Source: Nageia nagi (lineage: Eukaryota > Plantae > Pinophyta). Taken from it: DNA of 64,000 bases. Where the stretch lies: positions 133,300,001 through 133,364,000 of the forward strand of contig JBITNC010000001.1 of assembly GCA_050084985.1 (NCBI GenBank), read 5' to 3'. This document shows positions 1,298 to 45,720 of the stretch, piece after piece. Both the position numbers and the translations under genes were made by a program. Within the stretch, counting starts at the first letter, position 1, and each line of letters starts with the position of its first letter. The notes beneath the pieces were generated by a model. It did not search any database, had not been told where the DNA came from, and saw nothing but the letters and a program-made list of their open reading frames with translations.

Positions 1298-1585
1298 TGT
1301 TGTGCCCTACACAACTCGCCCCAAAATTTTGCAATTTTGGGAGCCCTTTGCAACTCAGACCTATCAAGGGTCCAATTAGAGCAACCTTCCAAAGAATCCA
1401 AAATCAAGCCTACCATCCTAGTGTCAAAGTGCAATCATACACCCAATCTCAATCATGTTGCATTGAAGAGTAAAACCCTGGAAAAATGGCTAAGTTTGGA
1501 GACTTCAGGTCGAATCTAGGGGGGACAAGGAAGTCCAAGTCAAGTCCAAACCAAGCAAGTCAGATCCAGGCCACTCCTAGGCCTA

Positions 1586-2532
1586 GCGCATGCTCCAGAA
1601 AGACAAAATCTTGTCTTTCTAAGACATGCGCTCAGGCCAGGAAGACGCCTAGTGTCAAGGTTAAGTCCCAAAACTCGAATTGGGTCACTCCTTGACCCAG
1701 CGCATGCCATGAAAAGACAAAATCTTGTCTTTTTGGGGCATGCGCCAGGCTTAGAGAGATGTCCAGGACAAAACGAAGGCCCAAAACGGACAAGTCAATG
1801 CACACCAAAGCTAGCGCATGTCTCAAAAAGACAATCATGTCTTTTGGGAGCATGCGCCCAAGTCAGGAGGCCACCCAAAAAGACAAAGTGCACTCACCCG
1901 AGGCTAGCGCATACCTCAAAAAGACAAAATCTTGTCTTTTGGGAGCATGCACCAAGCCTAGTAAGGCTTCCGGACAAGATGAAATGGAAAATTTGACTAA
2001 GGCACAGAGCCTCAAAGCCTGGATGCCTCTCAAGCATGACTAGAGAGGCTGGCGCATGCCTCAAAAAGACAAGTTCATGACTTTTGGGAGCATGCGCCAA
2101 GCCTAGGAAGACACCAGGACGAAGCAAGCATGAAAATAAAACTAAGTCCTAAGAGCAAAAAACCAAAACAAGGAAAATCTTACCATCTCCAACCCAACAT
2201 ATGCCTCAAAAAGATAGGATCCTGAATTTCTGGATCATGCACCCAGATTGGAGGAGCTGAAGAAGTTGGAGGGCATTTCGAAAAGACAAAATTTTGTCTT
2301 TTGAAATCATGCGTCGGGCTTGGAGGGGCCCCTGGATTGAGCCAATGGAGAAAAATGAACAAGTTGAATCCCACAAAAGTGCGCATCAAGCAAGATAAAG
2401 TCTCAAGACTGAGCTCTAGGGTCAAGTTGGAAGAAAAGGAGTGCAAGGAAGGCCAACATGGGGGAATGCATTCAACCCCAAGGCTCGCGCATTCTCTAGA
2501 AAGACAAAATCTTGTCTTTTCTGGGCATGCGC
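1586..2532. repeat. Array of 8 dyad-symmetric ~46-bp repeats, GCGCATG-N6-AAAGACAA-AATC-TTGTCTTT-N6-CATGCGC
   Basis: Copies start at about 1586, 1700, 1814, 1907, 2052, 2197, 2271 and 2487, separated by non-identical spacers. Confidence 0.92.
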
Positions 2533-2690
2533 TAGGCTGAAAGACACCCTAAACCGCCCACGTTTGGTCCTGATCGGCTAGAAGCAATGTTTCATGATGG
2601 CACACATCTCGAGGTCAACCACCTGGAGGGCTAGGATGTATCTTTCTCCATAATCTAGCCGAATGGGGTTTCAAGGAGGCCAACTTTAGC

Positions 2691-2698
2691 TATAAATA
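2691..2698 (+). promoter_or_regulatory. TATA box upstream of the LTR-encoded ORF
   Basis: GCTATAAATAC 220 bp upstream of ATG 2911. The same motif sits at the equivalent position in the second copy (34396-34403, minus strand). Confidence 0.65.
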
Positions 2699-2910
2699 CC
2701 AACTTGGAGGCTTCATTTTTCCAAAATTCAAATCACACTCCTCTTCTACACTTGCACCAAAATTGCAGAATTTTGAGTTTGAAATTCGTCCAGAAGCTGG
2801 GAAGGCTTGTGCATGGAGACAAGGAGGCTAGGAAGGTGACATGAAGGTCCTAGGCTAGCAAGAAAGCCAGCGCATCACTTTGGAAGGTCCTTGTCACTCG
2901 TCGAGACATC

Positions 2911-5900
2911 ATGACTAGTTTCAAAAGCAATTCGGCCAAGGACTATATGCGTGATCTGGAGAACATCAGGCATGAGTGCATCATCACTATATACGAGCGA
3001 CAAGACCCCTTGCCCCAAGGGGCTAAGTTCTCCAAGAATGGACTAGCCACTATCGGAGACACAAACTGGCAGAAGGTGGATCCGATGCAAATGAGGGCTA
3101 AGATCAAGAACAAGCCAAATAGCGAGCTGAAACAAGATATTGTCTTCTTCTCTGGGCTCTCAAATTGCACCTTCATCCCATTCATAGTCCCATTCCTAGA
3201 GTTCTGTTTGGAAGTCGGCCAACATTGGAAGAAGGGCGAGAGAGTACTCTATTACATCAAAGGCAACATCATCATGGATTTCAGCCCCGAAGCCATCAAG
3301 ATAGCATTTCAGTGGACTTCGGAGGGCAACTTTGAATACTTGGAGAAGTCGTTGGCATGCTATCGAGACACCAATAGGGCAGCCACAACAATCAAGAGTT
3401 GGATGTTGGACAAACATCATGGCCTAAAGGGCAACGCACTCATCAACGCCCCTCGCTCCCACTTCTATCTGTCCGTAAAATTAATGATCCTCATGTTGTC
3501 GTGAGTTCTTAGGAAGAAAGTTGCATCCAAATTCCGAAAACAGTTCTTCAGCTTCATCATGGAGATTGCTAGAGGGAAGAAGATCAAGTGGAGTAAGGAG
3601 TTGAGTGACAGCATCATGGATCAATTGTTATCAGTGGGGACCACACGCAAATTTTACCTCAACTCTTCCTTGGTATACCTGCTACTTTATGGCAAGCAAA
3701 GACCTACAGCTTCAGGGAAGGCAAACTTGATTGAATGAGGAACGTATGCCATATGGAAGTGCTACCTTAAGTGGAAGATTGAGAGGAGATGGGAAGACTT
3801 CATGATGAAGAGTGATGGATGGGAGCATGAAATTTACAAAGAACTCAAGGGAGAAATTACACTTGCTCAAATCTCCAATTCAGCCTAGGATGCGTTGAGG
3901 AGACATGGAGACTTTTTCATCCATCACCAACATTACTCTTACATTCGCCTCTACGGATAAGTCGTGGAGCCATATCAACTGCCTAGGTATGTGAGCAACA
4001 AGATGCTCCTAATGGAGATGATGAGGCAGTTGACCTACTTGCATGAGCATGTCTGGCAAAAGAAATCAGCCACTTCTAATTTACCGATCATAGTAGGGGA
4101 GCATCAGTGCAGAGCGTGGGCGGATGTGACCTCCATGATAGAGGAGTTGGAGAAGTACAACTTCCAGAAGATGTCAGTCACTAATCACTATGATCCTGAA
4201 CATCGGATTCATGACTTCTATATGAAGTAGAGGAAGAGAGCCTATGAGAATAGGCCACATAGAAATGAAGAGCCATTCTGGAACATCAGTACTGAAATGG
4301 AGGTGAAAAGGATCCGTGCCAGGATGCAAGAAGAGGCCCAGAAGCAACAACAAGAGGTAGAAGCTTCCATTGAAAAGAGATTGTCTCAATCTCGGGGAAG
4401 GAAGCCACAAGAATCCACATCTAGAGTCATCCAAGTTCCACCGACGATTGAGGAACCTGTCAAGCAGTATGCATCCACGCGTGGGAAGAATCCGGTTAAG
4501 TAGGTAGTGCAACAAGTCAAGGAGATAGTTGATGAACATGATATGAGAGAGTTGGAGCATGTGACGACTAATAAGGTGGTGAGATGTGTGAGAAATAGGA
4601 AAGTAGATTCGTCGCCACCCCAGAGGCCGCCAAGAGAAGTAGTGTAACATCCATCACAGACTATCCCACCATCAAGATCAGAATCCTCGGGCCGTTTATA
4701 TGAAGATCACAACATCCCTCAGAGAGAACAAGCAGATAGGCATGGAGATGAGGATCATCAAAGCATGCTTACAGAAGGGGAATATGAAAACATACCTCAA
4801 GATGAGTCTGATGAAGAGCCAGAGAACAAGCATGTAGCCAGTACTGTTCCCGGAGAAGATATTCAGGATGCACGGGGTGATGAAGAGCCGTCATTGGAGA
4901 TATTGAAGGAGGTTCATAATCATACCACCTCAAAGCCTTCAACATCTAGAGGGAAAAGCAAAACCCAACCCCTGAGTCAATACCAAGAAGAGCCCAACTG
5001 AAGAGGGGGTCTCAATCCAGATTATCAATGACACCCGAGGAATCTACAGGAAAAGAAGAAAGGCCTTTGAAGAAAATCAAAGAGAACGACATCACCACCG
5101 CTGAGGCAGTTGTTGAGACCCACCAACCTTTGCCTAATCGTGAGTGGGGTGTAGATATAAACGAATGTTTTGATGTCTTTAACATGGATGTGGCAGAAGA
5201 GTTCAGGCCGAGAGGAACATATGATCATATTGGAGAGAGTTCCACTCGTTTGGAGAGGAGTCAAACTTACATGCACATGACAGATAATGTGGTTTGCATC
5301 AAAACTATAGTGGCTGACAAGGATAACTGTCAAGGCCCAGGAGACTTCAGACAAATAAATCAGATCGTCAAGATAGGCCCCATTGGTGTGACTAGCAGAA
5401 AACATGTGATCGTCTCTAACACTAAGGCAATCGCAAAGGACGAGCTGCTAAAGGAGGAGATAAAAAGCTTGAAGAAAGAGCTGGCCGCCCAAAGGAGATT
5501 GACTCATGAGCTTGAGTCAACCAAAGTACCCACAAAAGAACTAAAGAAAGTCAAACCTCTCAAAGAAGGTATGATGGCAATGAAGCAAGAGGTGGTGGAT
5601 GAGATCTTAACAATATTGAGGCAATTCATTGAGGCCCTTCACAAGGTTTCGTTCGAAGAGAATCAGCTGAAGTACATTGTCACTGAAAGGGCAAGCTACA
5701 CCAGATTTTAGAGTCCCAGCAACCCATGATACTGAGGTATGAGACATCACAGGCTCAAAGGCCCAAGGATACTAAATTCTGCAAGGATTACTAGTTCTAT
5801 TGGGGTGTAAACAGCCAAGTACTTACCCACTTCCAGGAGGTAAGAAAGGAGGTGACCGCGATCAACGATAAGGCCCACTCATGCATTGAGCAGATGGAAT

Positions 5901-6216
5901 TTTAGGTGCAGTACTTGGAGGAAGACACCACCATTCGGGAGGCAGAAGAGGTAGTGGCAGAGGTCAGACACCTCCTTCAGAGCCTGATGATGACGGAAGA
6001 CGTGAACTCCTACCAGTCGGAGAGTAACTTGAGGCACATGCTACGACTCACACAGGGAGGATTGAGATGCAAAAGTTGGTGGACGAGGTCAAGGACAGTG
6101 TTGCTGTTAGCAGGCCGAAGTTCTCGGAGATGTTGTGTGGAGTGGAACTTACGACGAAATTCTTGGTCAAAGGTTTCGAAGACCGAGTTGTGGGCTTGGG
6201 CCCACCATTGGCTTAG
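2911..6216 (+). pseudogene. LTR-encoded ~1,100-codon ORF of unknown function (conserved N-terminal domain, acidic low-complexity middle, coiled-coil-like C-terminus), disrupted
   Basis: ORF pieces 2911..3504, 3964..4230, 4297..4503, 4765..5001, 5028..5711 and 5906.. are collinear with homologous pieces at 34180-30970 and 52986-56444. Confidence 0.85.
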
Positions 6217-7328
6217 CTATTATTTTGTTTTAAATTAAGTTTATTTTTATTTTCCAACTAGACATTTTCAGTATTATTTTATTCCCAAACTCGTGAAGGA
6301 TAAAGATTTGCTCCCAAGAGTTTGGAAGAAATTTTGTAATGCCATGTGGCGCATTTTTAATGAACCTCATTTTATTTCTGACATATATAACTAGGGTTAG
6401 GGCAACACTGTTGATTGCACCTAAAAATCATTTATACCCCATTTTGATTGATTTGTGGGGCATTGACATTTTGATAACTTAATAGAAACTTTGTTGGACC
6501 AAAATTGCTCTTAAGTGTTAAATGTGGTGTATATGGATGCTATTGTGATTTATTTACTTGTTCATGTTGGAATGTGAATGCGAATGAATGTTAGATAGTG
6601 CTATCTATGTTCATTCTATCATTGCTTGATGTTATTTCAATTGACTTGGTACATTTTGTAAACTTCATTGAGGTGGACGAAAGCTTGTTTGCATATCTTG
6701 AGAAGTAGTTGATTGATATCTCATGGATGATATTTCACCATTTGCAATATAGACTTGGTAATCTTGAGGGCTTCACTGATGATGTTCGCCATAGGAACTT
6801 CACCCAAGTCCTTTAGTTGTACCTTGGTCTCACCCTATCACATTGCCTCAACTTCACGCTCCATCCATTCAGCTATTCGTGTTGTTGGCTAGTTGATCAG
6901 ATAGTGGGTGCCTCGAAACTGCATTGAACCCAAGTGAACCAACTTCCGAGCATCCTTACCAGCCCGTGAGCCTGTATGCCCACTATTGCATCCTATTCCC
7001 ACAATCTTTCCACCATCTTTCTTCCTTTTATTTTACACTTTTTTCTGCGGTTTTCGCACCCCAATTTTCCCTTTTCAGCATTTTAGAAACAACCTTGTTA
7101 GAGCCCAAATATAGAACTCGGAGTCCCTTGAATCCACACATAATATTCATGTTAGTGGCAGCTCTAAACATCTCAACCGTATCCTAGGTTATTCTCGCAT
7201 AACTCACGAAGCCAAACCTTTGGGGTAACCAATCTCCATAGCGGGAGGGAGTAACGTCCCTCCACCTGAGGCGTTGGCATTTTTTCTCATTGCTTCAGGG
7301 TAGGAATGAAAAACTCCCCAACACGATG

Positions 7329-9793: not shown

Positions 9794-12758
9794 TGTAAGG
9801 ATCCCAAACACAACTCAAGTGTAAAATTAGCAAATTCAAACCCTTAAACTCTGACGTCAGGCCTAGGGCATCAATTACAAGCATATACCACACAATATTG
9901 ACGACATCTAAGCTAGGGCATCAATATAAAAACATGCACAACACCATGATACCAATGTCTGGCCAATACATACAATTATCAGTGAACAACACTCCACAAT
10001 GCCAACGTCTGGCTTACACGTGCATAATGAGACACACATCGCAACGTTGCATACATGGACATAATAACAATATAATATGAGATCCAGAAGTCCAACAATT
10101 GTATAGAAGATGTACAATGCTCAACAATACAATACCAGGCCCAATAGGGCTGACGTCTACCTCCAAGGAGCCAACTAGGGCATAACCAAATGCCTCTCAC
10201 TGATGGAATAATATCGAAACCATGGGACAATACGCTCCCTCAGAATCTGAATCCTCTCCACCGAAGGAGCCCTCCTCAAACCCTGGCTAACCACTGAAGG
10301 TAGAAGCTATACCTTGGAATACACCACCAGATGGGCAAGGGTGCTACACCAATGTCGCAGACGATCAAGATCCCTCAACCTGAAATCTCTCCTAGATGTT
10401 GCACCTAGGGGATGTGCTTAACGCCGCTAAGTCTTCTTGTCCTCTGGATGATATGAAGTATAATAATGATCAAGTATATCCAGTTATGAGACTCCAACGT
10501 CTCTTTATACACTTCTCACCTAGGAGTCATCACCTGGGTCCTCTAATCCAACGTTGGCCTCCTGGGGGCCCAAAATACCCATCGTGGATGTCTAAGGGTT
10601 AGACATGCCAACGTGGGGGCCTAGGGTGCATTAAGTGCCAACGTGGGAGTCTAGGAGTGCCACACATGCCCACATGGGTCAAGAGGGCAAACGTGGGGGT
10701 ATGGGAGCCTCCCCAAGACTAGTACATGCATACAAGTGTCTTTCTAGTCATCTAAGTGCAATAATAGACCTTGGGATACCCACAATCATGATCGGGATTT
10801 CCAAGTGCAATAATACCATCTAATGTACACTTGGGAGGGAGACGTCCTACTTGGGGCTCATAGTGGCGTCCATTAACCCATTAAGTCTTCTATCCCAAGT
10901 CAAAAACATGAAAGTACAAGGCATTAATAAAATATATTACAAAAGGAACCCATTAGGTTCCAAGATTAATTACAATTGTGCAAAGGGGACATCACAAAGC
11001 CTCCCCTCTCGAATTGCTTACCCTCAAGCAATGGTGGAAGACTGTAGCATATTGTCTTGCAAGAATCCTTCAATCTTGATAACAATGGTTGGTGAAGGTG
11101 AAATGCAACTTCAATATTCTTCATCCAGGATGGTAGTATAACGCAGACTACTAAAGCCTCATGCCCGTGCTTCACTGTAACTTGTAAACTCCCTGGTTTG
11201 TTGTAACTATCACTCCTCATCAACTACTCCATGGTAGTTCTCAGTACACATGGTGTATGTGTATCGATGTGGAGATGTACCTACAAGAACCTTAAGAAAA
11301 TCATAGATAAGTCAAAACAAGTTGGTGTCTTGCTCTTTAGATGAAGCCAATCCTCCCCCAAGCCCAACGTGGGGTCCCATGCTTCCCAATCACCCCCTAT
11401 GTATCCCAAGACTCCACTTCTCACTGTGGGGTGCCAAATTGCCACCTAACCCAACATTAAGTGCACAAACTCTTCTAGGTCCAACATGGGAAGCCAACAT
11501 CTTCTTATCCCAGCCGTTAAGTGCTCAAACCCCTTCAAACTGAATGTGGGAAGCCTAACCTCTCCAAGCCTCAATGTGGAATGCTCAGACTCCCTGAAGC
11601 TCAAAGTTTGATGGTGAATCTCCCACGTACCCAACATAGGGTGTCCAATCTCTCCTAGGCTCCATTTCTGATGACATATCCTTTAGATACCCAACATGAG
11701 GTGGAGATCCCTCCCAAGGCCTAACGTGGAATGCCTAGCTCCTCCAAGTCCCAACGTAGGCCCTTCGATCTCTCTGGGCTACAACGTGGGGTATGGAAGG
11801 TCCCCACTGCCCCTCATCTCCTATCAAGACTCCTCTTCTCCCAACGTGGCCCCGTCTTCCGCTTCCTCCTTCTAACATCACTCAATCACCTCTAGCCATT
11901 TGTTGTCCACTTGTGGACAATAATCTCTAATCCCTTGCAATGTGTGGGTCTTAGCATCCATCTCGAAATTTGTAGTGAGTTTCTGATAATTCGTATCAAT
12001 ATCACCCAAATCAAACAGCCACTGCACTCCCAATAATGTGAGGATGCCCCTTCAAGGGATAGATGTAGAAATCCTCCCTCACTGTACAACTTTGCAATCT
12101 TACACCAAACCTCTCAACGATGTGATCTACCAGTGTGAGTTTCCCATTGGCGTTGGAAACTTTGAATCACTCGAACCCTTTGGTCTTTAGATTCTTCTTT
12201 TTTGCAAAACCTGCATCGATGAAGTTGTGGGTTGCTCCTAGGTCAATTAAGACCATCACATCTTGTCCTCCCGCTTCCCACATAATCTTCAACGTGAGGT
12301 ACTTCTTTACCCCATGTAGTGAAGCAATCATGCTTCTCAATGTGCCTTCAGCCCAAGGTGCCACTTGATCTAGGATGTCTACTCCAATCTCCATATCTAA
12401 ATCATCTTACTCATCCTCAGAAAACACATTTATGTAATGCACTTGTCCCTTACCTTGACAACGATGCCCTGGATCCCAAGTCTTCTTGCAATAGAAGCAC
12501 TTGCCCTCCTCTCTCAACTTCCTTCAAGTGGTTGCATCCAATTGATTCATTCGAGGTGGGGGAAAGGGTTTGGCCTTGCTAGGCCCATCTTTATCAGCAA
12601 AAAGCTTCCGTGATTGGCCCTCTGTACATCTGACCTCCATTGAGGGATTTCACCGTTGGCTCCAGATCATACGCAGCCCGAATAGCATCATCAAGGTTCC
12701 TACGAGAGGACACCTTGACCATTCCCTGCAATGGCTCTATCAAACCCTCGATCAAGAA
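9794..12758 (-). mobile_element. Non-autonomous gypsy-type LTR element (3' part): 3' LTR 9794-10996, PPT 10997-11010, protease remnant; truncated at 12759
   Basis: LTR ends TGTAAGG.../...GACATCACA, PPT GAGAGGGGAGGCTT, VLIDLGATHNFID (ORF 12167..12394). Internal region is homologous to 44970-46784 and has no RT or integrase. Confidence 0.82.
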
Positions 12759-13370
12759 TGTTGTATCTTACACAACTTGCCCCAAAATTTCGCAATTTTG
12801 GGGACCCTCTACAACTTACATGCGTTTGGCACCTAGTCAATGCAACTTCTCCACGTTCCCAGATGAACTCAATATCATGCCTATTAGCCCATCACCCAAA
12901 TGTGCCCAAACAGCCCAATCCTAGTCATGTCGTGTTCAAGAGTTAAAACCCTCAAAAAATGGCTAAGTCTGGGAATTTAAGTCGAGTTTAGGTGAAACTG
13001 GAAAATTGGTATCGAGTCGGAGCCAAGCAACATGAATCCAGGTCACTCTTAGTCCTGGCGCATGCTCTAGGAAGACAAAATCTTGTCTTTCTACGACATG
13101 CGCTTAAGCCAGGAGGTCACCCGATTTAAATTCCAAGTGCGGAAAGTGGAACTAGGTCACTTCTGGACCCAACGCATGCCATGAAAAGTCAAAATCTTAT
13201 CTTTTTGGGGCATGTGCCAGGCTCAAGGAGGCATCCAGGATGGAATGAAGGCCTGGAAACAATGACTTAGTGCATTTCAAGGCTGGCACATGCCTCAAAA
13301 AGACAAAATCTTGTCTTTTGGGAGCATGCGACCAAGTCTGGAGACTACCAGGAGGGACTTGAGACCCAGA
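12759..13370 (+). mobile_element. Truncated 5' end of a third giant-LTR copy with three dyad repeats
   Basis: Starts TGTTGTATCTTACACAACTTGCCCCAAAAT, like position 1298. Repeats at 13058, 13172 and 13286 (114-bp spacing). Right boundary is approximate. Confidence 0.85.
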
Positions 13371-13418: not shown

Positions 13419-14690
13419 TGTAGTGTTCCAAATGAACACTTGTGCCAAACACAACCAATGAAACTAACAAAGGTTTCCAAACCCTAGAATCACACCTCCT
13501 AAGCTCCAACGTTGAATCTCTCAGGCAACCAACAACTCCCAACACCCACGTAGGGCTTCCCAAGCATACAAATACACTACCAACCTAACGTTGAGCTTCT
13601 AGGGTATCAAATACCTCCACAGACCTGACGTCAACCCTTCTACACTATCATTCACACTCTACAACTCACGAAGGCATACAATGATGAATTATTAAATGGA
13701 TATCATCACAATGACCATACACTAGAAAACCAACATAGACAAATGGTCCAAACCCTAACACATGCACATGAACATCAATCACACAACAAGAACGAGATCC
13801 CAAGCTCTCGGATATGTATTAACAATATGGAATGCAATACAATCTCATACAATGGCCAATAAGCAACCATAGGCTTCCCAAGCCAATTCGAATATACACC
13901 AATTGGAGTAAATCAATGGAATAGATCCGCTCCCTCAATCTTCGTCTTCTCCCCACCGAAGGGGTTCTCCACGAACACAAGATATCCAACTGAATGGAAG
14001 GAACAAACCCTCAGATTCCATCGGATGGGTTAGATGCTTCACCTAACCGTAGATGAATGGGATTCCTCAACCCAATCACCCTCTAGATGCTCCGTTTAGA
14101 AAAGTATACTTTCAGTACCGCCAAGCTCAGATAGTCACATAGACAAGAAGTAGTACTATCAATCATTCAGCTAACATCCAAATGAGCTCCACTTGAGTAT
14201 TTATAAGCTACAATCAATAATTCACCTCGAAGTCATCCATAAGCCTTCTAATCCAAAGATAGGCATCTGGAGGGGCCCAGTGACTTAACACACCATTATG
14301 ATGTCCCGAATTGCCAATGCAGCAACATAAGGCCCAGTAATGCCAACATGGGGTCCCAATCAACCTGAAGTGCCAACATGGGTATCCTGAAAGCCCAGTA
14401 AGCCAACGTTGAGGTGTGGGGCCCTCCTTCGAGGTGGCACAAGCATGATGACAATCCTAGAACACTAGGACTCGTTGGGATTCCCACAACTCGAGATCTC
14501 CAATCCTACAACACACTAACATGACTACTTAAGATAGAGATTTCCCGCTAGGGCTCACAAGTGGGGTCCACATGACCTAGTATGTCTCGTCTTAAGCTAC
14601 AAGCATGAACATGACCAAATACAAGGGATATCTCTAAGATATCTGCTTGACAACTACAAATTGGCACTATAGTACAAAAGGGATATCACA
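13419..14690 (-). mobile_element. Solo LTR (~1.27 kb)
   Basis: TG...CA ends, near-TSD ATATA/ATGTA, and motifs shared with the LTRs at 9794-10996 and 49946-51141. Confidence 0.75.
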
Positions 14691-14894: not shown

Positions 14895-17800
14895 TGAAAT
14901 GTACCTTTCTAGGCTTTATCCAATTTCTCACTTAATTCCACATTCATTCACAAATTAGGGCATCAAAGTAATTGCTCATTAATCATCCCAAATATGTGCT
15001 AAAAACTCTAATATAATAGCAGTAGCCAAATCTGATATAAAGCTACATGCGAATATGACCAAACTAAGGCACAATTTCATATCTGTAACATAACAAAAAT
15101 ATAGCTCCAAAATACTCTAATTCACATACATTCCCATGCACAATGAAGATAGTAGCATAGCATAAATATATAGGAACATTCATTCACATTCGAGACACAA
15201 TATAAAAGCCAATATCATCAATAATCAACCAAGAATAAGTATAGGGTTGTAACAAGCCTGTAACAAGTTCTAGGGCAAAGCCCAAGACTCAAAGATGCTC
15301 AATCTAGACTCCTCAAGGCTGTCGCAAATTCCAAGAAGGTTCCAAAGCTTGGTGCAAGTCCCAAGATGGCTCCTAATGGCTAGCGCAAGCTCGCAATTAC
15401 CAAAGATAGTTGGCGCAAGCTTTCTATGTGATGTAGAAGCGTAGAAGAGCCACTTCTAGGCTAGGGAGCAGCCCTAAGCCCTAGAAGGTATAGAAGGGGA
15501 GCATCCCTAAACTCCGAATGATCCAAGATCGAATGCACAAGATGATTTCTTCAAGTGGCCACAATCCATGCTTATATAGGTCTCCAAACTTGCAAATAGA
15601 GTCTCCCAAGGGCAACCGACTAGGAGGGAGCAATAATAAAAATTTAAAATAGCTCTGAAGTCTCCCCAGGATGACCAAAGTGGCCCTTTAATTTTAGCCA
15701 ATACAAATATATATTGCTCTTACTTGAGCATTTGCCTTATGGGGCACAAATATGAATATCCAAATACATTAATTAATAAATCAAAGACTCCTAATCTAAG
15801 TACTGAAAGTCAAAGTGAATAAGCATGGAGGTTGACTTCTAGATGTCCCAAATCGGGACATTTCAAGTCCTCCCTCCTCAAATTGCTTGCCCTCAAGCAA
15901 ATCCAATCACACCCCAAAGCGATGCTTGTCTTCTTGCTTTATCTTCAAATATGCCACACTGTCCAAGTGTTCCAAGTGGTGCTTGAGTCCATGGTTGTCC
16001 TCCAAATGTGGACAAACAATTCAAATACTCTTCAAAGTAGTCACTTGATGATATGAAGAAAATGCAATGATGGAGACGGCTATCCCAAGGGGAGAGGCAA
16101 GAAATGTTATTGATGATACATGCTTTTTCAACCTCCAACCTTGTGCCTTGCTTCCAAATGGGTCCCAATATTTTGTTGTTCCAAAACTGAGAGAAACTGT
16201 GACTAGTAAGGAGCTGGCCTGAGTGCTTTGGCTGATGAACAGGACTATTTCAACGACTGTAGCATTGGAAAAATGTCTTATAAATGCTTCCTCCTTATTA
16301 GGACTTGATGTTATGTCCTTGGTGCAAACTGTACTGTGTTCGAAAAGGGTGTTCCCCACCAAAACTAGGCATAAATCAGTCAATAGGGGATTGATTTTTG
16401 AGTCCACAAATCCTATCTTCTTCAACCCAATCTCTACAAAACACTCCCAAACTGGACTGTACTTTGAGTGTGCATAACCCATAGAGAAGCGATGTAAATT
16501 TGGTGCCAATAAACGTTAGAGAAAATACTTGACAATGCATACATTGATTGGCAACAATGAGATTCATAGGCTGAAGTGGCAAGGTTCCTTTGGTCACTTT
16601 GCAAACCCTTTCAATCATACTTGACTGTCCCAAACCTGAGTGTGTGTCAATCAGCAAGGTGTCTCTTGCAGCCATATAAAAAATTTTGTTGAGAGGGGCT
16701 AAATAATTGAATTTGACTCCCAACTTGTGCTCTTCGTCTTCTATAAGATAATTACAAAGATCAGAGATGGTGTCTTGGCTATTCCTTGTTATTGGTGGTA
16801 GCCTTTGTCCCTTTTTAAACTTGTAATGATTGCTGCAAACCCTGTAAGTGTTGTGGTTCCTTTTTGTTGCATGGGATAACCTTGTGGCAATATTCTTTAT
16901 TTGTTTGCATCTATAAGGAATATTAACATGTTTGGCAATTTTACAGAAAGGACAGTATGGTCCCCTTGTACCCTCTCTAAGAATGATAGGTGCAATCCTG
17001 CAACACTGATGACATACATACATACTGGAAAATTTGTTCAACTAAAATATGGCAGTCGTCCCATGGGATAGCATACAATCTCATTCCATCTCCCCAAACT
17101 TTATATCTTCATGCCATTTTCTGTCAACAACTGGCTGTTGAGTAAGAGGATGTATAGGGCCTTGGTTCCGATATTTTAACTTGTCTTCTTTGCAAGAGTT
17201 CACTGAATGCACCGATTGATGTTCAACATCTTCCCCTTTTCTTGGTAAATGACTCCCTAGGAAGTCTACACTCTTGGCATATCTTCCCAGGTTGCTACCC
17301 CTAACTGAAACTCGTTCATATGCCTTTAATGAGGGCCTCTATTGCTGTTGTTCAAGAATTGAATGTGATGACAAGGTCTGATTTATCTTGCTACATATGT
17401 CATATATCTTGCCAAGTACAATATGAAATGCATTTCTACCAATGATCCCAATTATACCAAACAATGCAAGTATGTTAACCCTCAACTTCATTCCTCCTTT
17501 TATCAATCCATGAATTTTCATCATCGTGTACCAAAGAGGGTAAACGAAATTTAATATACTGCTGTTACAAGTACTGTCATACCTTTTTGAAATTGCTTTA
17601 GAGTGCTGTCCAAAATCTGTAATTTGATTTGCTTCTATGATTGTGCCTACATCTCCAAATTCGTCCCTTATATCCCTTGTATGAAACGAGCCTTTAATGC
17701 CCTTCTTTACTTGCTTGTATCCAAACTTTAAGGGAGTCAAAAGGGGTGAGATTATACTCAGTATACTGCTGTCAAAATTAGGAAACTCATCATTCCTTGT

Positions 17801-20800
17801 GCGGGGAGTGTGTTGGCTAATTATTGCTATCAAAGGGTGCTTTTGATCTCTGTCCCATGGGGGGTAACTGCTGTGAGTGTTGGAGATACTGCTGTTCCCT
17901 TTTTGGGTGACGTCTTGGCTAATGTAATCTTCATGAAAGCTTTCCCATCTATTTATTGCAAGTAATGTGTATATAAGATGGATGCCCTTCAATGTCACCC
18001 TTCGCCCTTGTGTATCCAAGCATACAACAGGTCTGATATGACCCCCAAACCTTTCCAAACCTTCAACGAACAATCCCTCATCATTTCCAACTGAAGTGTT
18101 GTGCAAAGAAGTGATATAACTGATGGAATGTGGACTAGATGGTTGGTTCAATAGAATCGATATTGGGTCTCATTTAGTGCATAATAAGTGGGAACTCCCA
18201 AACTCTACATCCTCATTCACATAGTCATTTTCCAATACAGTCTCATTAAGTGCTCCAACTATCCACAAACATGCAGCCCATATGAAAAGTGAAAGAATGA
18301 ATAAGTATTGTGCTACAGTTCCATACTTGTCATTCCTTGTCCACCTCATCAAACACATTGTTGCCACTAGTCCTTGATATTTAGCTCTGAGATTGTAAAA
18401 ATCGGATGAATTTCATACCTTGTGGGAGAGTTGTCTTGGCTGATCCATGATCCCAATTAATATAAATATGACTTCAGATAGGAAATGTTCCCATTTGAAA
18501 ACCTTAAGACTGAATATGTGATCTCAACTCTGTCCCTGGCTGAATCTAAGCTAGGCTGAACTGAAACCATGGAATATTGTGATGCATTCTTCATGACATC
18601 TCCAAATTTAAATAAGACTCAATTCTATATCAGCAGTGATCATCAATTGTCCTTTACAATTAAAATTACTAGAATTTCGGTCATACCCCTTTGAAGTGTC
18701 TTCCATGTCGTTCCAACCCCCAAGAGAGTCTTCTTGGTGCCTGAGTGAAATCCACGTGCTTCAAATCCGCGTCACAAATCATGCTTTCCCTATGTATCAA
18801 AAACCTCGGATTCCATAGAATTATAGGCTAATGATACTTAATTGAAATGGTGTGCTCATGCTTATGTGACCATGCATTACCTTTATCTTCTTCAACATTA
18901 GGTGCTTGCCTACCTTCAAGATCAATTTTAGTTGTCCTTATGATATCTTCTCGACATGATTCTTCCTTGGCAAGACAACTTCCCCTTGTCTTGTCATAGT
19001 TCCCATACAAGGCTTGAGAACCAAGTTGTCTTTTGCGGAAAGATGTCATCATCTTCTTTCTTCGAAGGTGTATTGACGATCTTAACCATGTCATCAATCC
19101 CATTAGTGAATCTAATAGTTATAGAAATCTGATTGGATTTGTTTATTTGAACCATTGTTTTGTTCTTCTCCTCATGCCCAATATCAATACTAGTAGTTGT
19201 ATGCATTTCTATGCAATCATTGAGGAATTTCATCAAATATACCTCATGAGATCGGGTGTTTTCTTCATGTGATCCCTGCTCTTATTTTCTAATTTTCTCA
19301 TTCCTCTTCTCAAATTCCTCATGGATCTTTTGGCTAAAGTATTCAAAAGTGGTGATATGTTCATGGCCCAAAGTGGTGAGGCCATTGTACCACCATTCAT
19401 GTGCAATGTCCTCAAGGTGGAGGGAAGCATACTGAATTGCATCTTTCTCATCCATGGGATGGAGAAAGAAGTAAGTTCTCAACCTTTATAGCCATGCTCC
19501 AATGGAGATGTTGCTTCCGTTGAACATAGGCACTTGCAATTGCTTGTAATACTTACTTCCTTTGTCAATCTTCTTCCCCATAAACTTCAAATAACTCTCA
19601 AATGAAATCGCTTGTCTAAATTCATTGTTCTTGGCTTGGTATTGTGTGAAGTCAGAGTTCAAACCCTCGCTTGGACTTGCATTGCTTTCTTCATCTTGCA
19701 TAGCTAATGGGCAAGCGTCAACCTTCTTTATGGCTCTATTCCTTTGTCCATGTGTGGTTGACCCTGAAACTTCTTGATGGGACTAAGAGAGCCCATTTAC
19801 TTTGTTAACCAACTGTGTGAGCACATTGATCATAGACTTCAATTCTTCTTGTAGAATAGCCATCTAAACCCTAGGTAGCATTCCCCTCATAGGTTGGTAG
19901 CACTTTGAGGTCTAATACCATTGTAATGTACCTTTCTAGGGTTTATCCAATTTCTCACTTAATTTTGTATTCATTCACAAATTAGGGCATCAAAGTAATT
20001 GCTCATTAACCATCCAAATATGTGTTCAAAACTGAAATATAACAACGGTAGGGAAATCTGATATAAAGCTCATGTAACATGTGAATATGACCAAACTAAG
20101 GCACATTTCAGATCTGTAACATAACAGAAATATAGCTCCAAAATACTCTAATCTGCATACATTCCCATGCACAACGAAGATTCGATACGCAATATAAGAG
20201 CCAATATCATCAATAATCAACCAAGAATAAGTGTAGAGCTGTAACAAGCCTATAACAAGTTCTAAGGCAAAGCCCAAGCCTCAAAGATGGTCAAACTCGA
20301 CTCCTCGAGGCTGGCACAAATCCCCAAAAGGCTCCAATGCTTGGCACAAGTCCCAAGATGGCTCCTAAGGGCTGGAGCAAGCTTTCCAAGTGATGTAGAA
20401 GTGTAGAAGAGCCACTTCTAGGCTAAGGAGCAGCCCTTAGCCTTAGAAGCTAGAGAAGGGAAGCATCCCTAAACTCCAAATGATCCAAGATTGAATGCAC
20501 AACATGATTTCTTCAAGTGGCCACAATCCATGCGTATATAGATCTCCAAACTTACAAATAGAGTCTCCCAAGGGCAGCCAACTAGGAGGGAGCAATAAGA
20601 AAATAGCTCCTAAGTCTCCCCAAGATGGCCAACTAGGTGTGGGAGCAAAATCACTTAAAGTGGCCCTTTAATTTTAGCCAATACAAATATATATTGCTCT
20701 TACTTGAGTGCTTGCCTTATGGGGCACAAATATGAATATCCAAATATATTAATTAATAAATAAAAGACTCCTAATCTAAGTACTAAAAGTCAAAGTGAAT

Positions 20801-20846
20801 AAGCATGGAGGTTGACTTCTAGATGTCCCAAATTGGGGACATTTCA
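14895..20846 (-). mobile_element. Non-autonomous LTR retrotransposon with both LTRs (14895-15865, 19922-20846), decayed gag, no recognisable RT/RH/INT
   Basis: Long direct repeats, PBS-like TGGTATTAGACC (19909-19920), PPT TGAGGAGGGAGGACT (15866-15880), gag motif YASLHLEDIAHEWW (19282..19482). TSD not convincing (GAATG/GTAGG). Confidence 0.87.
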
Positions 20847-21547
20847 GTAGGAGTGAACTATCCGTCCATCTCATATCTATAGCAAATGCTCATGATAGAA
20901 GGACAACTTGGGGAAGAGAGGGGTGGGAAGGGAGATCATGTGTACCTAATGTACTGTTGACTAATGTCCTCATGGATCTTGCTCAATATCTTCTCCTTCG
21001 AAGGCAGAAGTTGCAAGGACGCTCCCAAAGAGAATTTGTAAGGAGGAAACCTACCAATCGGTGTTTGAATGCTGACCAATAGCATCCATAACAGTGCATA
21101 CAAACAAGTATGTGACTAAAATAAAAACGTAGTATTCAATGCAAACAAGTTCCTATATTCCTTTTGAACAAATTATATAAAGTTTTCAAGGATTAGCAAT
21201 TATTGACATCAATAGGTTTTTCGAATTATACTTATAGTGGGTGTGCATGCTTGGTAAAACAGGTTTGTCATTGTCTTAATTTGTGTAGACCATGCATAAT
21301 TCTAAAAACAATGAGGCTCGGGTTTGGAACATGTTACAGCTACACCCATAATAGTGGGCCCAGAGTAATATCCATTTAACGATATTATTAAAGCTTTAAG
21401 AATCTCAGAATTGGTCAACTATGCAAAGAAAATTACTTTTCTATAACTCACTGTTAAAGCCTTCGGTTGATTATATGACCATTTCAAAGATTGTTTGCAA
21501 AGGAAAAAATAACACTCAAGAAATGGGAAAGATTTTCAAATACATAC

Positions 21548-21679
21548 TTGCAGTTGAGTGACCTTTTTCAACAGCTTCAGCAGCATCCTCCTCTAGAAGA
21601 GTGCATTCATGAACAAGGGTATCTGCTCCAAAAGCTGCTGATTGCAATGAACGTGAATTGTATGTATCCCCTAGGATAG
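21548..21679 (-). CDS. tRNase Z exon (132 nt) with motif IV, HEAT-type and HST motifs
   Basis: ctgtctgtag|CT ATC CTA GGG GAT ACA...ACT GCA A|gtatgt. Encodes (A)ILGDT...VHECT...GHSTA. Confidence 0.93.
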
Positions 21680-24600
21680 CTACAGACAGAAATTAATACT
21701 TAGGAATCAAAGAGTTAACAAAATTGAAAAGATGAGAAAAAATCCAAAGTGGTCAGTATCAACATTCAACATGACAGCGTAAAAGTTGTTTTTCATGGAA
21801 AACATGGCCATTCCAACAGACAAAGTTGAGGACAACATCCTGAAAGTGACATTCTCATGAAATCAACTCTGTGCAAGGAAAGGAATTTGATCTATTTACC
21901 TTTACAGAGATAAAATGTCTTTTAATGACTGCACAAAAACAACTATTGTAGGAGGAATTGACCTTAGTTTTCTAGAGCAATCATTCAAAAAACAGGAAAG
22001 CTGACAAACACTTGTCAAATTCAAAAACGCAACTGTAGTGCTTCAAATTAGCTTTCTATCTTCAGGTTCTCCATTCACTGGACATTTTCAATTCTTTCCT
22101 TGCCACCAACATAAGCACATCTTCTGTGCAATCCATTTAGGGAGGAGAGCATAGAGCAGTATCCCTATTCGTTGCTCATTTTCTTGATTGTAAGAGAGGT
22201 TTCACTTTCTCATTGATTAATATATAAGGTTCAGTATAATCAACCTCAGATCAATAAGGAAGATTGTGTAAAGCAATTGTCACCAAGCAGTATGATAGTA
22301 CAAACTATTGCAAACACTCTTTGCTGTCATTATCACTCCAATGTACATCATATAGTTAAAATATTATTAGCTGGAGTATCCTTGGCTGGCTTGTGTGTTA
22401 GTTTACACTAATCTTATTTTCATTGCAGCAAAAGCTTACAATAAAATCAATGAGACATGGAGTAAGCTATAGTCATTCTTACACAGCCTATCAAGAGCAC
22501 CTAGATTTAACAACTAAGGCATGTACTTGCCTTATCCAAAATTGCGATTTTGACTTGCTAACAACTAGACTAGTTTGAACTTTGATCTTTCAAATTTTAT
22601 GCATGAACCTGTAATAGCTTTGTGAGTAATAGCTTTTGAAAGTTCATCTGTTTGTCGAACCTTCTCTCAAAATGTAAGCCTCAGTGATTCTACTAGGAGA
22701 CAACATATTTCATTACCTGAAGAATTGAGGGAATTGCAACCAGTAAGAAGGGACACTATTTTCATGAGGAAGAAGCACACAACATTGAACTATAAGCCAA
22801 TATGAAGCTCAAGAGATGCCCACTAGAGTTGTTGCAATAATATTGCTCACAAAACATATATAGGCATTTAAAGAAAGAATCCTTACTAAGAACACTACCA
22901 GAATGTATTCTAGAAAACTGAACATGCACCAAGGAGAAAATGAGGATTACAGTTCATGCTGAAGAATACAAGACAATATATTTGTGAATAAAGAAGATAT
23001 TAAAGCTCTTATTTCTAAAACTAAGCTGGTCAATTATTTGGTACTGCACAACAGACTTCAAACCTCTCGAAGAAATGCATTTGGTACCTTATGTTGCAGA
23101 GAATATTTGCTTTTGCATACAAGTTCTAGTATCACACTGCACAAAAAGCAATGGGAACGGGACAGAAAAGATTATTTCTTTCAGATTTTATGATGGATGA
23201 AACAAGAAATAATTATACCGGAAAGTCACATCACTCATTCTTGGCAAAAACTCAGTATGCACAAAAGTAGAGAGTATTACTCAGAAATAACCCTAAAATG
23301 ATTGGTCTTGGTGGTCTGATTGGTCCTGGCCCAAGAATGTCAATTTTTTGAAGTATAGGCCTCATCTTGGATATACTTGGCTTTCTCCCAATGTTCCCAT
23401 GGTTGATACTCTGAACTTGCGGTGGGATTTGGTGTCTTCTCACTCACGGTGGTCTCTCAAGTTCAATGTAGTCTGGTCTAAGTATTTAGAACCTAAGTAG
23501 AGTCTTTTTGCCTGGAGTTTGCTCCACCAAGGACCTCCTATTTGGGTGTGGTTAACCCGACTTGTGCTTTTCGTTTAGAACCGGCAGATTTTGTTCATGT
23601 TTTTTGGTCTTTTCCTAAAGCTCATGAAGCCTGGGATTGGGTTCTCCCTTTTTTCAATCCTTTCATTAATTCTCCTGTTATTTGGGTTCATGCTATCCTA
23701 GGAGATCCTATTGTGTTTTCAGAACCTCTCGGTGAAGTTTGGCATATTTTTCGGATTAGTATTCTCTATCATTTATGGAAAATCAGAAACAATATTATCT
23801 TTGGGAGACAAGAGGCTTCAACCTATTTCTCTCTTTTTGATAAGTACTCTGTATTTTTTGACTCTTGGTTGCAAATTATGGTTCAAGTTGAAAAAGTGAA
23901 CATGGAAGTGCCACATTTACGGAATCTGCTTAATTCTCCTGTTATTTGGGTTCATGCTATCCTAGGACATCCTGTTTTGTTTTCAAAACCTCTCGGTGAA
24001 GTTTGGCATATTTTTTGGAATAGTATTCTCTATCATCTATGGAAAATCATAAAAAATATTATCTTTGGGAGACAAGAGGCTTCAACCTCTTTCTCTCTTG
24101 CTGATAAGTACTTTGTATTTTTTGACTCTTGGTTGCAAATTATGGTTCAAGTTGAAAAAGTAAACATGGAAGTGCCACATTTAAGGAATCTTCTTGACCA
24201 CTGGGGGAATGCTCCCTGTACTCTCAATCGTGTTCCGCCAGAGGTTGCTCCACCGCCGAAGCAGTCTCGAAGTTGAAGGGGTTGTGACCATCGCCGCTCC
24301 TGTAGCTGCAATCCTAGCCATCACCTGTATAATGCCCATAGCTCGTCTCCTTTGCTATAGAGTCATTGGTCTCAACCCCTGCAAAATCCTCGTCATATGC
24401 CAGAAGCAGTTCTGGTTGACAGGATGTCCGACCTCCATATAAACAGCAAATGGAATGTTCGGCCCTCACAAGCTTCAAGGGAATGAGAAACGCTCTTCAA
24501 GTGAATGAGAAGTGTGCCCACGTTAAAGGAGGGGAAGCCAATGATGGAGTCTTCAATAATGATGGCTAGAATGTCACATCTGATGATAATGGGGGGTGAA

Positions 24601-27600
24601 AGCATATGAAATTTGTTGATAATTTCCACCCCCCCCCCCACTCTAATGTCTGAATATTGTTAAAATGCTTATTGGTTGGACTTTGAGATAAGTGTTGGTG
24701 GTAATAGTTTCTCTTGACAGCTATGCTTTTTTTGATTCGTCGCAATTTTTTGTAATGATGATTATTTTGTATAGTTGGTGGTGTGTTATATGGGGTGTGC
24801 AAATCCCACCCGCCCTTTTGTGTGAAGAAGGTTCTTAATATAATAGAAAGGATTTTTCATTCAAAAAAAAATGCATTAGACAGGTTTATCTCAACTAAAT
24901 CAAATGCATTCATGCACACTTATCAACACCGACTTTTTTATTATTGTCAATATGATAAAAATCTCAGATTTCACAACTATCAAGAGGTTTGAGACAAGGA
25001 AATGATGCGCAATACCCTTATTTCTTCATAATTATGATGGAAATTGTAAGGTATACGGAAAGCAAAACAAAACAGGTAAAATTACAAAGGGTCAAACCAT
25101 CTTCATCATTTCCTACCCAAACCCATCAACATCACATAACTTTTATATTAATCTCTTTTCTAAAGAAATAAGCAAACATGTGAAGCCTTGAGTCAACATG
25201 TGAATCTCAAAAAGAGAGAAGCAACATCCATAAACAACTCTAGCAGAAAGCAAGAAACTGAAAAGTTCTAAATGTTGATTCAAGTGAACTACAAATAACA
25301 TATCGTGGAAAGGTCAATTAGTTATCTTCAAAAATAAAAAGAAAGTATATTTTTTCACATTATGGCTTACACTTGCAGAACAGGTCAATTACATAAACAT
25401 ATTTTATGACTGAACCCCTCCATAAACAGATAGATTGCATTAATATAAGATAGTTTCTGCCATGGGAGAAAAGAGGAAAGGAGAATACACATTGAAACAT
25501 TGTTGTATAACTATAATGCTTCTATAGCATCATTACTACTACACCAAATTATCTTGTATAATAGGCGAGGTCTGATGAACCCAATAGTCTCTCAACATTT
25601 TTGTGGGAACTGGGTTGCTCAATTTTCTGTCAGTATCTCTCAAAGAGTCAAAAACATCAAGTTCTTGTGCCAAGAATTTTACTCCAGGTGATTTTGCTTT
25701 AGCAAATCCGCTAAGATCCACACTCAAGTTACTTGCCAATTACTGGCTAACCATCTGTACTCAATATACTCAAAAAAGTATTAGGAGTGATAATCAGGTA
25801 TTGGTTAACCACAGTTCAGTATTCCTTAGTTAATTGACACCATGTAGAATTACACTTCCAGTAGAATACTTTTGTTACACTAATTTTTGCATGCCTCTGA
25901 ATTTATTTAGCTCATAGGTTGTAAAAAATGTATCGATATCTACAAACCTATACAGTTTTTCACCAAATTCTTCTATACTTTTAGAGTAGACCTACGTTTG
26001 GCGGACACTGACAATAGTTCTATTGCAGTATTAGAAGGAATTTACATGAAAAAAATTAAAATAAACTATTTTGAAATGTTCAAACGTATTCAGTTTAGAG
26101 AAGAACCATCAAAATGTGCACTTGAGAATGAAAAAATTGAAAGCACAATGGTCTTTAATCTAAATAAATTTCCACTTATAATGAATTTAATCCAAATAAA
26201 TGCAACATTGATGTCGGTCTTTGGAATAAAATCACTTCTCTAAAATTTTAAATAAGCTAGTTGCTATTCCAAGAAAAAATGAATTATTGGAAAAATCCAC
26301 CAAAAAAGATTTTTTAAATTTCAGTTCTCAATAAATGAAAAAACATGCAGAAAACTCACCAATTTTCCGACCCTTACGAGGACAACCAAGAACATCCGAG
26401 GGACTCACCTGCACAAACAAGTCAAGCCATTGATCCAAATATTATTGGTATGTCGCTTCATGTTTTGAAAATGTCAAGAGAGGTATATTCAAATCAAATG
26501 ACAATTAAGGACCCTTAAGTCTCACACACAGCTGTTTTAGATGCATCTTCAAAGGAGTACAATGGCATATGGAAGTTGGAACCACTTGGATGTTTATTTT
26601 AAAAGTTTTTAGCATGGTAATGGCAAATTGTCCCAAAGCCCTGTATAATTCATTAAATTTGAAGATTTTTGGTTGTATGAACAATTAACTTATTGAACTT
26701 CAATATAATTCTTCGTTGGTTGCATCTGCTCAGGTCAAATATCAGTTATATATATTTGCAAATTGTGCTGGAATGCAAGGACTAATTTTGAATCAATCGG
26801 CTTCCTTGTGCAGTGGAATTCAACCATCATGAACCAAATAGGTTCATTTCAGCCAAACATAATAGACAGACTTGAGTAAATTTAATCTAGCATTGGAAAT
26901 TAAGGAGTCTATTAATATTCTAATCATGTACAACATTCTTACTAAGCCTGTCCAGGTAACAAATATATAAAACACATGCTTTTGAGTTCCAACAAGCTCC
27001 TTTGACTCCAGCTAACTATGAAAGAGATGCAGCTAAGGAAACATTGCCATGCACAATAGTTTCTCATAAACAGCCTACAGAGTTTTAGAAAACTTACATG
27101 ACTTGACATTTACTCTAAAACTAAATTCAGTGCCTACCAAAAGGAAGCAATCCGCCAACTTCAAATCATCACAGCCTGCAACTATACAGGTTCACCACAT
27201 TCAAAGGACATTAAAATTGGCAATGCTGCACAGTGCAGACTATACCTCCACAGTTTGTTAAGATATTAGAAGGACAACAGCTGTGAAGACAAACCAAGCC
27301 ACACAGTGCCACAATGACTTTCCAAACTTAAGCATTGTAATATCCCAAAAATTCTCCAACACAGGGATTAGCCAAATAATCACCAACAAATATCAAATTA
27401 ACAAATGCAAGATCAAACAAGTCACTCCCAAACCCAACGTCACACTAGGGCATCCAGTTATCATGCAAAACACACCATAAATGAGCCAAGAAACATGACA
27501 TCACACTCAAGATGGCAAGATAAATGCAACGCAACCACACAATGAGACAATATATGGAGATCCAATGCAAATGCCCTCAAATAACTGAAATAAGTGAAGT

Positions 27601-44460: not shown

Positions 44461-45720
44461 ATGTTGGATCCAGGATTGAGGAGGGGCATCAACTTCAATG
44501 GCTATCTTGAGCTTTTGGGGTTGCAGGGTAGCAGTGCGCATGGCCCACGGCAATCGAGGAGCCAATGGGAGGAGGACTTGCAGCATAAGATCAATATGAT
44601 GCAAGTGTCGTCGTATAATGGGAAGAAGATTATGACTAAGGCATGGTTACATCAACTGCAGACTTATTTCATATTGAACCCTAGCATGGTGGAGGTGGAT
44701 GCAATTCACTTTGCATCATTACACTTGGAGGGTGATGTCCTAGAGTGGCGGCATCATGGAGTTATCAGCCAAGGATATTCACTCATCACCTCATTTGATG
44801 AGTTTGCTAGGAGGCTGGTGAAGAGGTTTGACCGGAAGAGGGAGAATGATTACTTCTAGGATTTGATAGCGTTGAGATAGTCAAGAGCAGTGGATGAGTT
44901 TGTGACAGAGTTCCAGAGGTTAACCATCATGATCCATCATATTTCGGAGGAGAGGTTGGCTTACCATTTCATTGAGGGGTTGATGGAGCCGTTGTGAGGG
45001 ATGGTCAAGGTGTCCTCTCCTAAGAGACTTGACGATGCTATCCGGGCAACCTATACGACTTGGAGCCCACCGTGAAATCCCTTAGGGAAGGACCGGTATC
45101 CAAGGGGCCGGCTAACCGGAAGCCATTTGTCAAGGGGCCTAGCAAGACCAAGGAACTTCCTCCATCTAGGCCAGATCAGTTGGATGCAGCTACACAGCAG
45201 AAGCTGAGAGAAGAGGGCAAGTGCTTCTACTGTAAGAAGACTTGGGAGCCCGAGCATTGTTGTTTGGGGAAAGGATAGATGCACAATATTGAGGTGTTTT
45301 CGGAGGAGTCAGAGGACTCAGACTTGGAGCTAGGAATTGATGTGGAGGACTCGAGGTCACCACAAGTGGAGGGCACTCTTGGGAGCATGAATGCCTCACT
45401 CCATGGGTTGAAGAAGTACCTGACTTTGAAGATTGTGGGACAGGTGGGTGGATAGGATGTGACGGTGTTGATAGATCTTGGAGCATCCCACTTCATTGAT
45501 GTTGGTTTTGTAGAGCAGAAGAATCTGAAGAGGTCAAGGCATTTGAGAGGTTTCGAGTTTCCAATGCCAATGGGAAACTCACCTTGGTTGATCACATTGT
45601 GGAGAGGTTTGGAGTGAGGTTGTAGACTTGTGTAGTGAGGGAGGACTTTTATATCTAGCCTTTGAAGGGGTATCCTCACATCATTCTTGGAGTGCAATGG
45701 TTGTTTGACTTAAGGGATAT
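44461..45720 (+). pseudogene. Decayed gag-protease
   Basis: FASLHLEGDVLEW (44461..44859), KCFYCKKTWEPEHCC (45060..45278) and VLIDLGASHFID at about 45465. Confidence 0.82.

Follow-up and report, generated by a model that had tools for sequence, protein, structure and literature searches.

What is the function of the array of eight imperfect palindromes, each 46 bp long, that occupies positions 1586–2532 (+ strand) of a 64,000-nucleotide stretch of Nageia nagi DNA (assembly GCA_050084985.1, contig JBITNC010000001.1, positions 133,300,001 to 133,364,000; this whole stretch is referred to as the window)? The array lies at the 5' end of a long terminal repeat (LTR), element A. On the basis of structure prediction and analogy, we propose that it is likely bound by a protein encoded downstream in the same LTR, whose predicted fold resembles that of VANC21, and that this binding would hold the LTR promoter in an active or unsilenced state. 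The original prediction for this locus, a binding array, was supported in part: a predicted VANC-like fold and selection on the palindromes speak for it, and the RNA-hairpin alternative that it had offered fared badly.

A motif search tolerating up to 12 mismatches returned 20 rows corresponding to 19 sites (one unit was listed twice), namely eight at 1586–2532, three at 13058–13331 and eight at 34562–35529, which bears out the predicted counts and coordinates; the mean in 30 dinucleotide-matched random windows was 0.03 per window. In element A the units start at 1586, 1700, 1814 (44 bp), 1907, 2052, 2197, 2269 and 2487 (+ strand; spacings 114, 114, 93, 145, 145, 72 and 218), and small deletions were found in two units, which are 2 bp (1814) and 1 bp (34998) short. 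A metagenome scan located the motif on six contigs (L002–L006 among them), of which L006 was dropped as a 99.9% duplicate of L004; window and contigs together gave 59 motif matches, and 54 in-register units were analysed after five off-register or degenerate matches had been removed. The motif was absent from the viral contigs searched, in which no relative was found. The half-site of about 23 bp consists of GCGCATG, six pyrimidine-then-A positions, AAAG(A/T)CA(A/T) and two central bases, with 1.6–1.9 bits at ten positions (54 units). Of the 19 sites, just two fit the quoted pattern exactly, and the inner arm is frequently AAAGTCA(T/A) in place of AAAGACAA (T at position 18 in 33 of 108 half-sites). 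Likewise, the drift originally ascribed to N6 linkers and spacers applies to spacer sequence; the N6 linkers are constant in length and constrained in sequence (0.3–1.4 bits per position, below the conservation of the arms), and spacer length does not drift freely. In eight units of one subfamily (L003 946–1799 and 9489–9868) both inner arms were switched symmetrically from AAAGACAA to AAAGTCAT, possibly a specificity shift or a template-switch correction under way, and mixed inner-arm units were present in L004 and in the window.

The segment at 1298–7323 (+ strand, 6,026 bp) starts with TGTTG, ends with CAACA and is flanked on both sides by CGATG (1293–1297 and 7324–7328), and is therefore a solo LTR; it interrupts an unrelated minus-strand Ty3/gypsy element within gag-pol (reverse transcriptase at 548–1186, Pfam). 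About 160 bp past the last unit of its array lies a TATA box, TATAAATA (2691–2698, + strand), to which we attribute a putative promoter role, and a gene begins at 2911, in agreement with the predicted location of the array upstream of the LTR gene. Element B (29849–35842, minus strand, 5,994 bp, 64–68% identical to A) is a second solo LTR with TG..CA termini and a 5-bp target duplication (GAAAC; CGATG in A), and contains on the minus strand the eight units at 34562–35529, a TATA box at 34396–34403 and a broken gene starting at 34180. Element C (12759–13350, + strand, 72% identical to A) is a 5' LTR fragment of the same family with units at 13058, 13172 and 13286 (+ strand; spacing 114 and 114). 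A TATA box was found at the equivalent place in B, L005 and L003b. Family A is abundant, as 7,200 contigs from one sequencing run aligned to A, covering 30 of 30 bins and most of them less than 95% alike; among the sequencing runs listed, one contained a small share of matching sequence and none was an RNA run, which is no evidence about expression; no complete family A element was present in the window or in the six metagenome loci. A second TATA-like sequence with TAGGGTTAGGG occurs 3' of the gene in A (6384–6405), B and L003b having the TAGGG part only. It is possibly a separate promoter for genomic RNA, in which case the LTR gene would lie in the U3 region.

Between A and B, 102 of 112 inner-arm, 71 of 98 outer-arm and 46 of 84 N6 positions were identical, as were 381 of 621 spacer positions, a figure inflated by gapped alignment; the means over nine element pairs were 88% (inner arms), 79% (outer arms), 73% (N6) and 68% (spacers). 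Adjacent 114-bp monomers (15 pairs) shared 85–92% in the arms, 51–70% in N6 and 44% in mid-spacer, and 72 of 108 arm CpGs survived against a background CpG ratio of 0.31–0.36. The arms are hence conserved above the spacers, and the original prediction withstood the refuting comparison proposed for it, although the units had themselves been selected for their likeness to the motif. This pattern indicates that the array is under selection, and we regard a selected protein-binding array as very probable. Neutral tandem duplication, with palindromic cores homogenised by template switching or gene conversion, would fit the frequent occurrence of tandem repeats reported in LTRs and Tat internal regions (PMC11963269, PMC6317226), and the symmetric switch in L003 could be a correction of this kind. 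We nevertheless judge it a very poor candidate: the arms are conserved between families with near-saturated synonymous sites, CpGs persist, the same architecture recurs in a second family (element D, below), and both arms match the family consensus rather than each other. Each arm follows the consensus and not its partner, as two binding half-sites would.

The distances between units are also regular, near whole turns of the DNA helix. The recurrent spacings of 72, 93, 114 and 145 equal 10.5k−1.5 with a deviation of at most 0.5 bp, those of 207, 217/218 and 291 are each the sum of two recurrent ones, and of 43 spacings, 36 deviate from a multiple of 10.36 by no more than 1.5 bp; a 441-bp spacing was left out, as it spans the boundary of two nested LTRs in L003. 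The four spacing classes, which were chosen after inspection, gave R 0.99 at period 10.5 (p 0.0006) in phase tests that replaced an earlier, uninformative free-phase test. Eight unit-to-unit joints from other copies measured 71–72, 114 or 145 (8 of 12 rows among the matches listed). Apart from the way the classes were chosen, several points tell against this phasing: the spacings are inherited, three single spacings are off phase (p 0.32 once they are included), and the 93 spacing in A contains the unit that is 2 bp short, an intact 93 existing in L003. The AA/TT dinucleotides have a period of 10.35 bp over arrays A and B (reached by 0 of 200 shuffles) and, more weakly, over D (p 0.015), which would suit a structural element in which phased A/T tracts bend DNA, position or exclude nucleosomes, or form cruciforms, with no dedicated specific binder; for single units, the computed RNA folding energy is moreover −15 to −29 kcal/mol (seven units; no shuffle control). 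We consider such an element improbable. The periodicity arises from the units and is lost once they are masked (spacers alone, p 0.26), base identity beyond A/T content is held at 1.6–1.9 bits at many positions, and selection for cruciforms predicts arm-to-arm covariation, of which there was none in the outer arms and N6.

The ability of the units to fold also bears on RNA hairpins in the 3' LTR copy of the genomic RNA, acting in packaging, template switching or as a small-RNA decoy. Inner-arm complementarity was higher within units than between them (0.884 vs 0.823; 0 of 5,000 shuffles), and eight units had changed symmetrically in both arms, but this signal came mainly from the eight related L003 units, maybe a single event, and mixed units were equally common (12 among the listed classes). 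The outer arms (p 0.10) and N6 (p 0.18) did not covary, mismatches capable of G-U pairing (75) were not above A-C types (88), no Rfam match came near threshold (two were at chance level), and hairpins offer no reason for the 10.5-bp phasing. The covariation test thus went against the hairpin possibility raised at the outset, covariation being confined to the inner arm and due mainly to one contig, with no G-U excess; an RNA hairpin array is largely disfavoured by these comparisons and appears to us most improbable.

If a protein binds the array, the gene in the same LTR is the nearest candidate source. In A it was read as an open reading frame (ORF) of about 1,100 codons (2911–6216, + strand), broken by seven in-frame stops in 2911–4977 and frame changes near 4960, 5700 and 6000; the gene is broken in both window copies of the family (A and B). 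Identity between the two was 26% at synonymous and 84.5% at non-synonymous sites, which indicates that the gene has been under purifying selection. The protein has a folded N-terminal region of about 480 aa, an acidic low-complexity middle and a helical C-terminal region; a coiled coil is an impression from sequence only, because a crude score flagged only P0112 736–772 and nothing in P0001 or P0002. The N-terminal domain (about aa 46–320; 3046–3870, + strand) has a predicted fold that aligns end to end with VANC21 (PDB 9LNK_A, residues ~297–636), and the same alignment was obtained by structure prediction for a 69% identical copy from L005; the domain probably has a VANC-like fold. Foldseek against PDB matched neither model at E ≤ 0.001, sequence searches against solved structures nothing below E 0.2, and profiles did not match the VANC21 chain at E ≤ 10. 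Pfam gave no meaningful match to the LTR protein, and none to PF10536 (plant mobile domain, PMD), PF04195 (Transposase_28) or PF03078 (ATHILA ORF-1) at the curated cut-off; DUF1985 was not matched among the 25 of 44 Pfam families listed for 108 members, the other families having one member each at E of about 0.07 or weaker. Word-based homologue searches found one, three and three proteins, none informatively named, and the ESM Atlas linked a C-terminal fragment of the family weakly (score 0.77) to PF04195 / TRP28.

A second family in the window carries a different motif in the same arrangement. The 5' LTR of element D (49893–57714, + strand, start approximate; about 6.6 kb without a nested LTR at 49946–51141) ends in CAACA, and its 3' end is homologous to that of A (score 117, vs ≤107 in 500 shuffles). 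A PBS (primer-binding site)-like 17-mer follows 10 bp past the LTR end (57725–57741, + strand), which may correspond to tRNA-Asn; the gap (57715–57724) is wider than expected. The identification of the family A segments as LTRs is supported by this distant relative, in which the end that aligns with A is followed by the 17-mer and by gag-pol. The D array (51397–52510, + strand), which had not been listed in the original prediction and became central evidence, comprises eight 48-bp palindromes of the type TCGCATG-N7-AAAG-N12-CTTT-N7-CATGCGA, starting at 51397, 51578, 51696, 51911, 52028, 52113, 52304 and 52463 (+ strand; spacings 181, 118, 215, 117, 85, 191 and 159). Their leave-one-out ranks were 3–9; a ninth candidate at 52869 ranked 739 and was rejected. 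D and A units are similar in their outer arms and AAAG..CTTT frame and differ in having seven-base linkers and another core. Six of the seven D spacings exceed a multiple of 10.5 by 1–2.5 bp (p 0.009; 0.026 with 117/118 merged), and after subtraction of unit length the linkers run beyond a whole turn by about 5 bp in A and by about 6–7 in D. The D LTR gene (53060–56444, + strand, broken, ends approximate) encodes a protein 36–41% identical to that of A over residues 31–468. Motif and protein have thus both changed between A and D and the geometry has been kept, in two families only. The D-type motif did not occur in the six metagenome loci. The internal region of D (57734–64000, + strand) encodes gag-like and protease-like segments (both weak), RNase H, reverse transcriptase, RNase H and integrase, with an archaeal-type RNase H between protease and reverse transcriptase (60790–61230, RVT_3 E 1.8e-17), which is the TatII layout; for family A this layout is extrapolated by homology only.

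Whole LTRs that lack the gene have kept the array. L004 (2,974 bp) and L003b (3,067 bp), whose flanks match at 4 of 5 letters, gave no tblastn hit to the LTR gene at E ≤ 1, and gene-less LTRs of about 3 kb with an array were located at L004 320–3291, L003 9191–12256 and L002 about 2600–4790. In L004 the TATA box is also lost, yet 10–11 units are present. Retention in gene-less LTRs fits a cis element served in trans. An ordinary LTR enhancer, at which host factors (B3/RY-type at the outer CATG arms, auxin-response-factor type at TGTC, others) bind and the LTR gene does something else, would account for this retention equally well. The GCATG outer arm common to families A and D speaks for such an enhancer; phasing and gene-less retention suit any cis element, an array upstream of a TATA box is in the usual place of LTR enhancer repeats, and the majority of inner arms contain TGTC (63 occurrences of TGTCTT among the 54 units). 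The consensus motifs are CATGCA for RY and TGTCTC or TGTCGG for the auxin response element. In the 54 units, CATGCA was found 11 times vs 60 for CATGCG, TGTCTC 4 times and TGTCGG not at all, so that of the RY alternative noted originally the shared GCATG arm stands and CATGCA as prevailing core does not. TGAC replaces TGTC in about one third of half-sites, the family D core is different, typical plant factor sites are shorter than a conserved half-site of 23 bp whose inner spacing is fixed, and the VANC21-like predicted fold of the adjoining gene is left unexplained. We therefore regard a host-factor enhancer as unlikely, if less so than the structural, hairpin and neutral explanations.

The LTR's own protein is, in our assessment, fairly likely to be the main binder of the array, and if it is, activation or anti-silencing would be clearly favoured over repression or tethering. 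The LTR would be a self-contained cassette of sites, promoter and gene, in which one subunit would occupy each 23-bp half-site, the palindrome would take a dimer, and neighbouring dimers may cooperate through the near-constant linker phase. Once bound, the array would sustain promoter activity through an anti-silencing effect, by analogy with VANC21 and MAIL2, and LTRs that are broken, solo or without the gene could be served in trans by protein from unbroken copies. More tentatively, and short of an even chance, gymnosperm TatII retrotransposons may bear in each LTR a co-evolving anti-silencing switch composed of a VANC-fold DNA-binding protein and a family-specific phased palindrome array.

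Several other features were noted in the window. Exon-like short pieces on the minus strand (21530–21700, 26340–26410 and 36640–36740), two of which were scanned without a Pfam match, resemble tRNase Z in their motifs, and it appears that B and similar elements are located within very long introns of a host gene. An element at 14895–20846 has LTRs of about 950 bp (83–88% alike) and, on the minus strand, three ORFs (276, 221 and 164 codons) that had no meaningful Pfam match; no reverse transcriptase was noticed in it; a related LTR piece occurs in L005 (4295–4723). Another LTR family (42229–48132, 9794–11006, 49946–51141 and 13900–14600) carries 30-bp tandem repeats with a CCACGTTGG core, possibly host-factor sites, in its LTRs and internal region. 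A 264-bp tandem duplication (94% alike; 23666–24195) lies within an ORF fragment that had no Pfam match and that we take to be LINE (long interspersed nuclear element)-like.

VANDAL DNA transposons are an established case in which a transposon protein counters silencing in a sequence-specific way, VANC21 being reported to bind repeated motifs and to cause methylation loss (PMC5735166). Here, candidate binder and candidate sites adjoin in two families with different motifs. Should the proposal hold, this would be the first retrotransposon system of the VANC type, and the protein-motif logic of VANC and PMD would predate angiosperms. Solo-LTR formation would spare the module because gene, promoter and sites are all inside the LTR; solo LTRs would thus retain it, and LTRs without the gene would be served by it in trans. 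It could help to explain the continued expansion of such elements in heavily methylated giant genomes, and long phased palindromes with a dedicated binder might provide tools for sequence-specific chromatin opening.

With VANC21/VANC6 of VANDAL, the LTR system shares a transposon-encoded accessory protein, with a predicted fold that aligns over the whole domain, and candidate targets in the form of motifs that recur in non-coding DNA of the same element and differ between related families, the A and D arrays differing in core and length beside 36–41% identical proteins (two families only). This part of the parallel drawn in the original prediction stood; a Mutator-like element and DUF1985 were not found. 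The host element is an LTR retrotransposon (TG..CA ends, 5-bp duplications, a relative with PBS-like site and gag-pol), sequence similarity to VANC was not detected, the site is a phased palindrome of 46–48 bp vs the 8–9-bp motif of VANC, and gene and sites share the LTR, with a function suggested by analogy. The LTR system is therefore not a member of VANC/VANDAL, being of the wrong element class and having no DUF1985 match among the families listed, but it probably works like it. VANC is described as dicot-specific and Mutator-borne, and as structurally related to PMD (PMC13547354); according to a meeting report, there are unpublished structures of VANC with DNA (PMC12859917). PMD (PF10536) proteins comprise MAIN, MAIL1 and MAIL2, of which MAIL2 is reported to associate with a palindromic promoter motif and to oppose Polycomb silencing (10.1101/2024.09.27.615353), and PMD ORFs of retrotransposons are known from Ogre and TatIII (PMC4408406, PMC5418596). 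PMD-C is reported as VANC-like in structure, and Tat extra ORFs are often given as 'PMD plus coiled coil' (PMC4408406), a layout resembling that of the LTR protein. Unlike them, the LTR protein has no PF10536 match, and the retrotransposon PMD ORFs are placed by the available descriptions upstream of gag or in antisense downstream of pol, outside the LTR and with no cognate motif array described.

An RNase H between protease and reverse transcriptase, as in D, is reported to define TatI (club-mosses) and TatII (gymnosperms) (PMC6317226), and TatII is reported as unique to gymnosperms (PMC13477047), which makes a gymnosperm host probable; the 5-bp duplications are a further likeness. The PBS expected of TatII is one for tRNA-Asp or tRNA-Asn, the latter being listed for 15% of TatII in REXdb (PMC6317226). 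Lineage II is stated to be without extra ORFs (PMC4408406). REXdb, however, gives sense extra ORFs for 23% (5') and 26% (3') of 27 TatII elements, domain-less in the supplementary table (PMC6317226). ORFs at both sides are the pattern expected of an LTR-borne gene, and these may be the LTR gene, uncharacterised, but the accessible parts of that source neither describe them as LTR-borne nor mention an array. TRP28 of Retand is likewise a Tat-lineage accessory ORF proposed as a DNA binder near family-specific repeat arrays; it is antisense, between pol and the 3' LTR, and the accessible part of that survey does not show a link between array and protein (PMC11963269). Its sole tie to our family is the weak language-model score for the C-terminal fragment. 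The function of extra ORFs is left open in a review (PMC7264820) and in the Retand survey (PMC11963269). In Tekay elements of REXdb, sense extra ORFs were listed at 33% (5') and 18% (3') (PMC6317226). LTR-borne genes may be commoner than described. No LTR-borne VANC/PMD-like gene with its own array was described in the titles and abstract openings listed by literature searches, and papers behind subscription, like Additional files 1 and 3 of REXdb, may bear on this novelty. Genes inside or overlapping an LTR are exemplified by MMTV (mouse mammary tumour virus) sag and HIV (human immunodeficiency virus) nef, and transactivators of their own LTR by HTLV (human T-lymphotropic virus) Tax and foamy virus Tas. 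The likeness to these lies in a gene in the terminal repeat and an element protein acting on repeated LTR sites; the proteins are unrelated, and in the present case a single cassette, which persists as a solo LTR, unites gene, promoter and putative targets.
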